Of a stretch of DNA of 27,359 nucleotides, positions 19,643 through 22,083 are shown piece by piece. Location of the stretch: assembly GCA_964621445.1 (NCBI GenBank), contig CAZUNO010000029.1:5186-32544 (forward strand), written 5' to 3'. The stretch is from Candidatus Hadarchaeota archaeon (GTDB lineage Archaea; CAYQAE01; CAYVLA01). Position 1 is the first letter of the stretch. Each line of letters starts with the position of its first letter. The translations under genes were made by a program, and so were the position numbers. The notes below the pieces were generated by a model. It was given only the letters and a program-made list of their open reading frames with translations, searched no databases and had not been told where the DNA came from.

Positions 19643-19710
19643 GTAGCAATACCTTGGTTCCACTCGCCTAAAAATCTGTTCAGTAGGCTAGAAACCAAAT
19701 GGAAAGACCT

Positions 19711-19717
19711 AAAAAAA
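19711..19717 (-). terminator. oligo-T archaeal terminator candidate
   Basis: T7 run on the minus strand shortly after the last GC-rich hairpin of the structured segment. Confidence 0.5.
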
Positions 19718-19761
19718 TAGATGGATTTGCGGGGAGACGGACGACAAGACATCCCGCCACA

Positions 19762-20102
19762 CCTCTTGTGAGGCTCGGCGTGGAGGTCTGCCTCTTAGCT
19801 GGTTCCTCAAGCCGATCACGATGGAAGAATCGGGATCAGCCGCGCCTCAGTGAGACCAGCTCCTCGAAAGGACACTGTTTCATCGAGTTTTCCCCGGAAA
19901 AGACGGCGAAAACACGAGCGTCTTCCACAGCAAGGTCTTGGCGTGCTGGAGCACGCTTGACCCTTCTGCCAAGAACAGGCAAAAAGCCCGGAGCTTCTTT
20001 CCGGCAGCATCCGTCCCCTGACCGCTCCTATGCCCCTCCAACCGACAGGTTTGCAGGGAGGCGAACAGGGAATGGGGTTACCAGTCCTCTTCTGAGGCTC
20101 GG
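19762..20102. repeat. 17-nt direct repeat CCTCTT(G/C)TGAGGCTCGG at 19762-19778 and 20086-20102
   Basis: 16/17 identity read directly from the sequence. Confidence 0.85.
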
Positions 20103-20406
20103 ATCTGGGAACCCCGATCCTTTGCTTGCTCCTTTACAGCCACCTTCCCGGGACGGGGGAGGCGACCAGACCTCAACGGAGCAAGATCCTCAACGGGTAG
20201 CCACATCTTGCCGGACGTTCTCGGGGAAAACGATCACGACCGGGGCAATCCCGTGGCCGACGATGCTGACCGTTTTAGGCTTGACGCCTGATATCGGTCG
20301 ACACCGGACACGAACCCTGGATCCAGAGGACCCGGGGTCTTTCCCGTGACGTTCACTTCCTATCTGCCCTGCCAGTCACGACGGGGATTAATGTAATGTC
20401 ATTGGC

Positions 20407-20416
20407 CTATAAAAGC
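20407..20416 (-). promoter_or_regulatory. TATA box candidate for the structured RNA
   Basis: CTTTTATAGG on the minus strand, about 25 nt upstream of where the GC-rich structured region begins; also readable as TATAAAA on the plus strand. Confidence 0.5.
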
Positions 20417-20575
20417 TTAACGATCGGCGTTAAAACAAGGCCTTAGCAGCTCTATTTTTCCCTTATCATGTAAAATTAAACGTCAGTTAATAAAGAAGCA
20501 TGTCAAATCATCTAATCTCGTGTTGTAAAACCCGCTGTTCCATCATAGATATAAATCCCCGGTTCCCCATTATGG

Positions 20576-20875
20576 ATGATGGGCAGAAAGGAGACCGCCT
20601 TCAGAGCGATCATAATATCAATATTCATAATAGGATCCATTCTTCTGGTATTGGAGCTAAGGCCAATCCTCTCCAAGGAGAAACTTCTCCACAGGGGGAG
20701 GCTGAAGAACCACTACCAGGCATCCGGCGATCACCTGTTCGAGTTCGAAAACAGAACCATCACCACTTCAGGCTGGCTCTGGAAAACGTACTTCCCGCTG
20801 AATGAGACCATATCGCTGTATGAAAGGGGGCCGGCCATCGTGGTTAGAACCGAGCCAGGGACCATGGCGGACTAG
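20576..20875 (+). CDS. small hypothetical membrane protein
   Basis: Single N-terminal TM (AIIISIFIIGSILLVL) followed by a short beta-rich domain. Confidence 0.6.
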   Translation: MMGRKETAFRAIIISIFIIGSILLVLELRPILSKEKLLHRGRLKNHYQASGDHLFEFENRTITTSGWLWKTYFPLNETISLYERGPAIVVRTEPGTMAD

Positions 20876-20956: not shown

Positions 20957-21298
20957 TTGGCCAGCAGGATTAAAGAAAAGATATCCGATTTCTTCCGTGC
21001 CACTGCAGTCCTAAGGGCAGAGATGCCGGAATGTAACGGATGTGGCATGCATTTCAACAAGGAGAAATACGGCCACGAATGCGAATATCCCGGATGCACC
21101 ACAATTCTGTGTCCGAAGTGCAGGTTCTGTTCCAAGCACGCCCAGTGCCCGGACTGCGGCAAGCTGTTCCTGGTCGATACCGGACACGCGTGCGGGGATC
21201 CATACTGCGACAAGCTTCTTTGCCCCAACTGTGGACCATACTGCGAGGAGCATGCAGAACAGGAAGATACCTACGAGGATGAACGCTTCGAGTACTAG
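20957..21298 (+). CDS. Cys/His-rich tandem zinc-finger protein
   Basis: Two repeats of C-x2-C-x9/10-H-x-C-x4-C-x4-C-x2-C-x2/3-C-x2-H and an acidic tail; alternative ATG at 21023. Confidence 0.75.
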   Translation: MASRIKEKISDFFRATAVLRAEMPECNGCGMHFNKEKYGHECEYPGCTTILCPKCRFCSKHAQCPDCGKLFLVDTGHACGDPYCDKLLCPNCGPYCEEHAEQEDTYEDERFEY

Positions 21299-21447: not shown

Positions 21448-22083
21448 CTACTCCTCTTCCAGCCAGGCCTCTACCTTCCTTACCCCCAGGACCGCGTCCC
21501 CTGCACAGGCATCTGCACCCATTTCCTTTGCGAGTTCATCGGTCGCTGCCGCTCCGCCCACGATTATCCTTACCCGATCACGGAGGCCGGCCTCCTCTAT
21601 AGCCTTGACTACCTCCTTGGTGTAGGTTATAGTGGTTGACAGGAGGGCGGAAAGGCCGACCACCTGGGCGTCCTCCTCCTTGATCGCTTCCACAAATTTC
21701 TCGCTGGAAACATCGACGCCAACGTCCACCACATCGATCCCGGCCGCCACCAGCAAGGAGACAACCAAGTCCTTTCCGATATCGTGTAGATCGCCCTTTA
21801 CGGTTCCTATGACGACCGTTCCCTTGGCCTCCACCTCATCCCCCTTCAGGGCAGGCTTTAGGATCTCCATGGCCTCCTTCATGGTCTCCCCGGCCATGAT
21901 CAGCTCGGAGAAGAAGAACTCACCGCTCTCGTATTTGTCACCAACGTCCTTCATTGCATCTCCCAATGTATTGACCAGTTTTATCGGTCGGACGCCATCG
22001 TCAAGGGCATTCTGGACGCTATCCTTAATCCCGTCAATGTCAAACTCAAGCAATTGATTCTTGATCTTCTGATCATATTCCAT
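21448..22083 (-). CDS. corrinoid (B12-binding) protein, MtaC/MttC-like
   Basis: Cap domain VG..YE.GEFF.SEL; B12 motif GDLHDIGK, SALLSTT, VGGA. Confidence 0.93.
   Translation of the reverse strand: MEYDQKIKNQLLEFDIDGIKDSVQNALDDGVRPIKLVNTLGDAMKDVGDKYESGEFFFSELIMAGETMKEAMEILKPALKGDEVEAKGTVVIGTVKGDLHDIGKDLVVSLLVAAGIDVVDVGVDVSSEKFVEAIKEEDAQVVGLSALLSTTITYTKEVVKAIEEAGLRDRVRIIVGGAAATDELAKEMGADACAGDAVLGVRKVEAWLEEE

Follow-up and report, generated by a model that had tools for sequence, protein, structure and literature searches.

Archaeal splicing endonucleases recognise the canonical bulge-helix-bulge (BHB) motif, hBHBh', in transfer RNA (tRNA) introns, in the processing stems of ribosomal RNA (rRNA) and in a few other RNAs, according to the part of the account that also supplied the motif definition used here (PMC7714728). 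The subject of the present analysis is an RNA encoded on the minus strand of the only long gap in a 27,359-nt stretch of DNA from a Candidatus Hadarchaeota archaeon (contig CAZUNO010000029.1; the whole stretch is called the window). This RNA consists of two homologous domains in tandem, each closed by a long helix that holds a predicted BHB motif. An earlier note, made from the letters of the window, had proposed an independently transcribed large RNA at this place. That the gap encodes a conserved structured non-coding RNA of a new family is, in our judgement, very probable.

The archaeal rRNA operon likewise contains two large structured RNAs in tandem, each within a BHB-bearing long helix, and the path through the endonuclease EndA and ligation is the one predicted here, as far as the same account extends (PMC7714728). 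An operon-like layout would give the two products in equal amounts, and two loci of this kind may evolve in concert. The window RNA differs in having no sequence or covariance-model likeness to rRNA, and in its domains, which are homologous to each other and only ~300 nt long. The permuted signal recognition particle (SRP) RNA of Thermoproteus is matured by BHB cleavage and circularisation, in the portion of the report drawn on here (PMC4731332). It shares with the window RNA the character of a stand-alone stable RNA, neither tRNA nor rRNA, whose functional form would arise through the tRNA-splicing machinery; the genome studied here has, however, a normal SRP RNA elsewhere, and the window RNA matches no SRP model. 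BHB introns outside tRNA include one in the 5' untranslated region (UTR) of HVO_1309 (PMC7714728), and rRNA and tRNA introns are described as persisting as circles (PMC3326292), both sources being represented here by excerpts. The recognition motif is common to these introns and the window RNA, and the excised part is again predicted to circularise. Whereas the introns of these accounts interrupt a functional host RNA, the flanks in the window RNA (31 + 21-31 + ~10-20 nt) form no recognisable RNA, and it is the excised parts that carry the conservation.

We know of almost no large structured RNAs in archaea besides rRNA, RNase P RNA and SRP RNA; the ornate large RNA classes of unassigned function known to us, OLE, ROOL and GOLLD, are all bacterial, and to our knowledge none of them is framed by BHB motifs or made of two homologous halves. 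Their size of ~600-800 nt, the many helices, the interspersed invariant nucleotides, the narrow phylogenetic range and a function that is not known are features shared with the window RNA, whose tandem pseudo-dimer recalls their homo-oligomers, judging from the sections of the reports at hand (bioRxiv 10.1101/2024.12.08.627333, PMC9723947). The likeness to these bacterial classes that had been suggested for the gap is thus one of size, and it is not accompanied by any covariance-model match. Viroids and viroid-like circular RNAs measure 246-401 nt, and the predicted products resemble them as non-coding, densely paired circles of ~300 nt; the window RNA differs in being chromosomal, with a predicted promoter of its own and conserved synteny, and in the proposed circularisation by host EndA and RtcB. 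Searches of the literature, which covered abstracts and passages of main text, brought up no account of an RNA of this kind; supplementary tables of circRNA-seq studies might list comparable BHB-framed archaeal RNAs. The RNA of the gap counts as a new, previously undescribed RNA class.

The gap, positions 19664-20499, is the sole non-coding stretch longer than 220 nt in a greedy map of open reading frames (ORFs), as the earlier note had it; this count sets aside a spurious plus-strand ORF at 19699-20349, and the remaining gaps are all <=220 nt. The minus strand of the RNA region folds with a minimum free energy (MFE) of -307.4 kcal/mol (z -6.06) and the plus strand with -266.7 kcal/mol (z -2.39), each against 20 shuffles, which agrees with the strand proposed before. 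Comparison of the whole window with Rfam 15 (4227 families) gave no match at gathering score. In E-value mode nothing below E 1 was found between 19400 and 20700, the best value being E 1.6 for a microRNA model (19.1 bits, threshold 99). None of the covariance models of OLE, ROOL, GOLLD, HEARO, RNase P, SRP and group II intron reached the gathering threshold, and self-cleaving ribozymes (hammerhead, HDV, twister or similar) had no Rfam match. The identities of SRP RNA and RNase P RNA were rejected because both RNAs are present full-length elsewhere in the genome (G000), at G000:C16:48115-48423 (196.5 bits) and C17:11560-11900 (203.2 bits), respectively.

The genome G000 (3.2 Mb, 89 contigs) possesses a full-length paralog on contig C11, alignable over ~670 nt, in which conserved blocks alternate with divergent ones. 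The RNA occurs in all three other genomes of the family, once in G001, once in G002 and twice in G003, one of the G003 copies being split across two contig ends. A 28-letter degenerate motif, scanned exactly through one genome per species (185,579 species), was found only in contigs of G001-G003. An exact-pattern scan of metagenome contigs gave seven contigs and three added loci, L023 (identical in sequence to L025), L021 and L024, which makes nine distinct loci in total. A covariance model of the 160-nt 3' core of the domain, R1, recovered every domain of the four family genomes with 114-158 bits and gave no match in the only other genome of the phylum. Among 151 archaeal genomes, G000 and its three family relatives included, R1 matched weakly in nine non-family genomes (E 7e-6 to 0.09). 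The best two of these, in G077 and G106, were rejected as false since they lie inside protein-coding sequence, and the remaining seven score <=14.9 bits. A pattern scan of viral contigs (IMG/VR) gave no matches, nor did distant blastn searches of plasmid and phage collections. The family was found only in a small lineage labelled Candidatus Hadarchaeota.

The consensus structure was derived with RNAalifold from an alignment of six full-length homologs (712 columns, 72% mean identity) and comprises 194 pairs. Standard pairs fill 90.3% of the cells, compared to 83.4±0.6% with shuffled partners. Both partners differ at 69 of the 194 pairs; shuffled controls gave 35.5±4.2 such pairs, with 0/500 reaching 69, and controls with slid partners gave 14-24. 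A relative with ~92% identity is present in contigs of two runs (X4, X5) from another study. Nineteen listed differences lie inside the RNA, eight at unpaired and eleven at paired sites, and 9 of these 11 keep or restore the pair; 27 further differences fall outside the 19 listed. A naive column-pair scan of the domain alignment, limited by misaligned variable parts, gave no extra supported helix of the pseudoknot type. The reading of the conserved asymmetric loops GUUGAGG/A and AYCCGAG/A as kink turns was considered by eye and set aside, the expected tandem G·A pairs being not consistently possible.

Most of the helices that had been picked out by eye in the earlier note, whose motif positions all agree with the sequence, recur in this consensus. 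The pairing ggggttaccag/ctgggaacccc is helix P6 of domain I (helix 13), agctggt/accagct is P5 of domain II (helix 23), the hairpin gcgtgc-tgga-gcacgc is helix 18, and the pairing GGUCGCCU/AGGUGGCU is helix 12. The hairpin UCCU-UUCG-AGGA corresponds to a conserved CCCG-UAAA-GGG mini-hairpin, whose two pairs are standard in 16/16 and 14/16 domain copies. The helix GGCUGAUC/GAUCGGCU with its 4-bp stem belongs to the single-sequence MFE structure, and every homolog has a hairpin at that place. Two local stems, cgtgac 20345-50/gtcacg 20375-80 and the terminal gcggg/cccgc at 19729-57, are absent from the consensus; their bases serve long-range closing helices instead. What had been described as one large RNA of ~670 nt holds as a conserved structured non-coding RNA, and differs in its mature form, which is probably a pair of ~300-nt circles cut from a precursor of that size. 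The two homologous tandem domains, each inside a BHB motif, are features beyond that first description.

In the consensus, columns 15-382 and columns 384-688 of the alignment form two domains, each closed independently of the other, which align mutually over their whole length. Common to both are the closing helix, the P2 hairpin, a GGGA(U/G) block, the mini-hairpin, the block AGCAAAGGA, a helix P5 that reads CUCGCCCC..UGAGG..GGGGUGAG, and a P6 hairpin with an invariant CCUC-NNNN-GAGG tip and the asymmetric AYCCGAG/A loop. Over 15 domain copies, both-side changes were found at 29 of the 54 shared pairs, compared to 17.0±2.2 with shuffled partners (0/500). In a maximum-likelihood tree all domain I copies stand apart from all domain II copies (support 100/99). 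The sequences indicate that the RNA arose when one domain of ~300 nt was duplicated in tandem, an event that the tree places before the divergence of these species. The predicted transcript and the helices within it are as follows.

19711-20392, minus strand: predicted primary transcript of ~680 nt (leader, domain I, spacer, domain II, trailer, T7), from the extent of homology to the paralog and five other full-length homologs
20306-20351, minus strand: domain I helix P2 (consensus)
20271-20294, minus strand: domain I helix P3 (consensus)
20198-20259, minus strand: domain I helix P4 (consensus)
20188-20196, minus strand: domain I mini-hairpin (consensus)
20125-20185, minus strand: domain I helix P5 (consensus)
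20070-20120, minus strand: domain I helix P6 (consensus)
19799-19859, minus strand: domain II helix P5 (homology to domain I)
19746-19794, minus strand: domain II helix P6 (homology to domain I)

The closing helices of both domains have the same layout. Going inwards, the outer helix is followed by a 3-nt bulge in the 3' strand and then by 4 bp of central helix; a second bulge, also of 3 nt but in the 5' strand, leads to an inner helix of 9-10 bp. In domain I of the window, CAGG-GCAG-[AUA]-GGAAGUGAA pairs with UUCGCCUCC-CUGC-[AAA]-CCUG, and in domain II GGA-GCGG-[UCA]-GGGGACGGAU pairs with GUCCGUCUCC-CCGC-[AAA]-UCC.

20352-20380, minus strand: 5' strand of BHB I, with h at 20368-20380, H (GCAG) at 20364-20367, bulge AUA at 20361-20363 and h' at 20352-20360
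20027-20065, minus strand: 3' strand of BHB I, with h' at 20057-20065, H (CUGC) at 20053-20056, bulge AAA at 20050-20052 and outer h at 20027-20049
20009-20028, minus strand: 5' strand of BHB II, with outer GGA at 20026-20028, H (GCGG) at 20022-20025, bulge UCA at 20019-20021 and h' (GGGGACGGAU) at 20009-20018
19723-19742, minus strand: 3' strand of BHB II, with h' at 19733-19742, H (CCGC) at 19729-19732, bulge AAA at 19726-19728 and outer UCC at 19723-19725

The central helices GCAG/CUGC and GCGG/CCGC thus have the 4 bp of an endonuclease substrate. By alignment, the 3-4-3 geometry is kept at 12/12 domain ends of the six full-length homologs. In unconstrained MFE folds it appears at 6/12 places, those of both BHB I and BHB II of the window RNA included, compared to 0/120 in dinucleotide shuffles. 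Over the 15 domain copies the H helix is 98.3% paired, with a GC to AU compensatory change in five of them, and the inner helix h', 9-10 bp long in every copy, is 97.8% paired. The outer helix of domain I, whose 3' strand (20027-20049) doubles as the spacer between the domains, is at least 10 bp long and shows compensatory changes. Examples from h and H of BHB I are the changes from CAGG/CCUG to CCGG/CCGG and from GCAG/CUGC to ACGG/CCGC in G002.

Archaeal tRNA-intron cleavage falls between the second and the third bulge nucleotide. The same rule was assumed for the window RNA, and the coordinates of the putative circles depend on it.

20051-20361, minus strand: predicted circular RNA I, 311 nt, equal to domain I (BHB I and the assumed cleavage rule)
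19727-20019, minus strand: predicted circular RNA II, 293 nt, equal to domain II (BHB II and the assumed cleavage rule)

Across the six homologs the excised part is predicted to measure 306-316 nt in domain I and 288-295 nt in domain II. All invariant blocks lie within the domains or their closing helices, and the predicted circles contain GGGAUUG, UGAGG, AGCAAAGGA and AGCCUCA..AGAGG. The conservation of unpaired columns is 0.62-0.64 inside the predicted circles and 0.20 in the spacer. The enzymes needed for such processing are encoded in the genome. Two EndA-type frames, at G000:C2:82920-83723 (minus strand) and G000:C9:29229-29699 (plus strand), lie in open frames of 387 aa and 512 aa and carry two tRNA_int_endo domains each, and RtcB is encoded on contig C11 (609 bits). 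The presence of two EndA paralogs in a single genome may bear on the range of substrates.

A tRNA gene interrupted by giant introns was considered for the locus and rejected, since the joined flanks form no tRNA in any of the six homologs (ARAGORN, 0/6). With the -i option, ARAGORN predicted introns in 26 of the 42 tRNA calls of G000, mostly of 12-43 nt and variously placed. In six calls the supposed 'intron' measures 246-2214 nt; these calls are probably false, and the two that were inspected have poor cloverleaves.

The signals expected at the borders of an independent archaeal RNA gene, a B recognition element (BRE) with TATA box and an oligo-T tract, are both recognisable in the window, and the minus-strand TTTTATA (20408-20416) and the T7 tract pointed out earlier are parts of them.

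20408-20422, minus strand: BRE/TATA-like promoter CGTTAA-GCTTTTATA, ~25-30 nt ahead of the point where conserved bases of the RNA begin
19711-19717, minus strand: tract of seven T on the RNA strand (T7), probably an archaeal terminator, read from the sequence

A CG(A/T)TAA-(G/C)TTTTTAAG box stands at constant distance from the RNA in seven loci (window, paralog, G001, G002, both G003 loci and L023) and resembles the TATA boxes ahead of the tRNA genes of this genome. T tracts follow the RNA elsewhere as well, with T9 in L024 and T5 in L021; they are weaker or more distant in the other loci.

Transcription, cleavage, circularisation and action in trans are what we infer from these features. RNA polymerase would start ~25-30 nt past the BRE/TATA box of an independent minus-strand gene and stop at the oligo-T tract, giving a precursor of ~680 nt. 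This precursor would fold into the homologous multi-helix domains I and II, with a canonical BHB in the long helix that closes each of them. Cleavage by EndA would take place in the four bulges, followed by ligation of the ends by RtcB. Two covalently closed RNAs of ~311 and ~293 nt would result in equal amounts, besides a short ligated remnant of leader, spacer and trailer, which is probably discarded. Thereafter the circles would most likely work in trans, as a stable pair that either binds proteins as a scaffold or forms an RNA-RNA heterodimer. We hold this processing of a ~680-nt precursor into two BHB-excised circular RNAs with moderate confidence. It is tempting to speculate further that the locus is a miniature counterpart of an rRNA operon, whose two viroid-sized circles would form a pseudo-symmetric heterodimeric machine (a ribozyme or the core of a ribonucleoprotein), that it represents the first large ornate RNA class native to archaea, and that its loci are homogenised by gene conversion like rRNA operons; this wider view is a tentative one.

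The family provides an archaeal large RNA with covariation support and with an unusual, readable biogenesis signal, the BHB around each homologous domain. Such framing predicts circular RNAs that function on their own, unlike introns after excision or intermediates of processing. Should the circles prove real, the tRNA-splicing machinery would have more roles than are known, and a natural scaffold for stable circular RNA would be at hand. Moreover, the pseudo-dimeric design bears on the evolution of large RNAs through duplication.

Several observations weigh against the two-circle model or the data behind it. The outer helix of BHB II has only 3-5 bp, overlaps that of BHB I and is interrupted in G001 and L023 by a mismatch or bulge. 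In these two and in G003_C24 the outer helices of BHB I and BHB II compete, and BHB II is missing from the MFE structure; G002, with an A·C in its domain I H helix, shows no BHB in the MFE at all. Only six full-length and a few partial sequences were available, all from one family-level lineage, so that the covariation counts partly reflect shared ancestry, and the consensus structure was derived from the same sequences used to test it. The counts are therefore strong support but not independent proof. Neither the neighbours nor known motifs gave a functional clue, and in 6/9 loci the RNA lies directly 5' of fumA, a Fumerase-family gene, on the same strand, an arrangement that could point to a role in cis. 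A linear two-domain RNA of ~680 nt as the functional form, in which the BHB-like geometry is structural or a trimming site and no stable circles accumulate, would accommodate all of the conservation and covariation evidence equally well. The very short outer helix of BHB II and its absence from the MFE in 4/6 homologs are in keeping with it, and so is the reopening of the pre-16S and pre-23S circles of archaeal rRNA maturation, which are only intermediates in the accounts drawn on here. The exact 3-4-3 geometry at both domains in 6/6 homologs, with compensatory changes and no counterpart in the 120 shuffles, as well as the poor conservation of the unpaired spacer, as for a discarded part, speak against a linear end product, which we consider unlikely.

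The position ahead of fumA raises the question of a cis-acting leader of the fumA-fumB-glycerate kinase operon, with transcription of the operon from the promoter ahead of the RNA and with the domains either removed as giant BHB introns or serving as a sensor that governs read-through of the T tract. A BHB intron is known from the 5' UTR of Haloferax HVO_1309, in the excerpted source (PMC7714728), and the T tracts after the RNA are weak in most loci. This explanation appears improbable in view of the three of nine loci in other contexts (G000_C11, G003_C24 and L024, the next gene being convergent in L024), the T7 directly after the RNA in the window, a promoter-like box that fumA has for itself, and the size of the domains, which exceed any known riboswitch aptamer by far; a leader would be expected upstream of the same gene class in all loci. 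No alternative terminator/antiterminator pairing was identified, and the adjacency may be inherited, the whole block of the divergent 99-aa ORF, RNA, fumA, fumB and MOFRL kinase being syntenic. A selfish or once-mobile element, duplicated and spread as intron-like BHB-bounded or viroid-like circles, would agree with the two loci of two domains in each genome, with assemblies that break inside the RNA and with the viroid-like size of a densely paired circle of ~300 nt. It is very improbable nevertheless, as there are one or two loci per genome in conserved synteny, each with a dedicated conserved promoter-like box, and the RNA has sequence blocks that are strongly conserved under selection; host genes are left intact at both loci, joining the flanks gives no tRNA, and neither a self-cleaving ribozyme of Rfam nor a viral, plasmid or phage match was found. 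A protein-coding gene or pseudogene, suggested by the 216-aa plus-strand ORF at 19699-20349 and a 193-aa antisense frame in the paralog, can hardly be the explanation. Neither frame has a Pfam match, the frame offset between the two paralogs changes 23 times inside the RNA (alignment columns 1-674), and the longest open frame switches strand and frame among the six homologs, in which no conserved reading frame was found. Substitutions track base pairs, not codons, and the codon-like conservation that would have spoken for the plus-strand ORF is not seen in the homologs.

The genes around the window RNA are partly conserved with it. Downstream on the minus strand lie a class I fumarate hydratase pair (PF05681, PF05683) and a MOFRL glycerate kinase, and in 6/9 loci the order is 99-aa ORF (divergent), RNA, fumA, fumB and glycerate kinase. 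A conserved box between RNA and fumA was found ~27-32 nt before a likely TTG start.

19668-19680, minus strand: GAGA(G/T)ATTTTT(C/A)AGG box, at the same place in L023, L021, G001, G003_C191 and G002

This box is probably fumA's own promoter, for a leaderless mRNA, and because of its position the annotated GTG start of fumA (19663) may sit too far upstream. Since three loci lie elsewhere and fumA has this separate promoter-like box, the adjacency of RNA and fumA is read as inherited synteny, not regulation.

The second RNA locus has a neighbour of its own, a 392-aa protein encoded 128 nt downstream of the paralog (L050:137-1315, plus strand, equal to G000:C11:42536-43714). In G003 the second paralog likewise has a homolog of this protein (43% identity) at a distance of ~1.7 kb (L016:1-673, minus strand). 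The protein has no Pfam family and no usable Atlas match, and it is a candidate partner of the RNA or a mere synteny marker. Its presence beside the second paralog in both G000 and G003 indicates that the two RNA loci are old. In the tree the G000 paralogs are nevertheless mutual closest relatives in both domains (support 87/87 and 97/95), which suggests gene conversion or re-duplication.

Assemblies break within the RNA at the contig ends of L021, L024, L025, L013/L008 and L022/L020, and the first ~120 nt of L021 and L024 are identical before the two diverge. Breaks inside the RNA are typical of two-copy repeat collapse, so that copy numbers in metagenome-assembled genomes may be undercounted.

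Upstream of the RNA, the plus strand at 20576-20875 encodes the 99-aa ORF, which has a hydrophobic N-terminus and no Pfam family. It is kept beside the RNA in G001, G003 and L023 (40-51% amino acid identity), and in G002 it has another place on the contig. The ORF probably represents a real gene for a small membrane protein, transcribed divergently from the RNA. An A(A/T)TT(C/T)TACA motif was observed ~60-85 nt upstream of the TATA box in the window (~20478-20488, minus strand), L023, L007, L005, L006 and L013; L023 and G002 have it twice. The motif could be bound by a regulator or serve the divergent 99-aa gene as promoter. Farther upstream, a Cys-rich protein of 113 aa with several CxxC pairs and no Pfam family (20957-21298, plus strand) adjoins a corrinoid (B12-binding) protein (21448-22083, minus strand), and both genes are kept beside the RNA block in L023 and G002.

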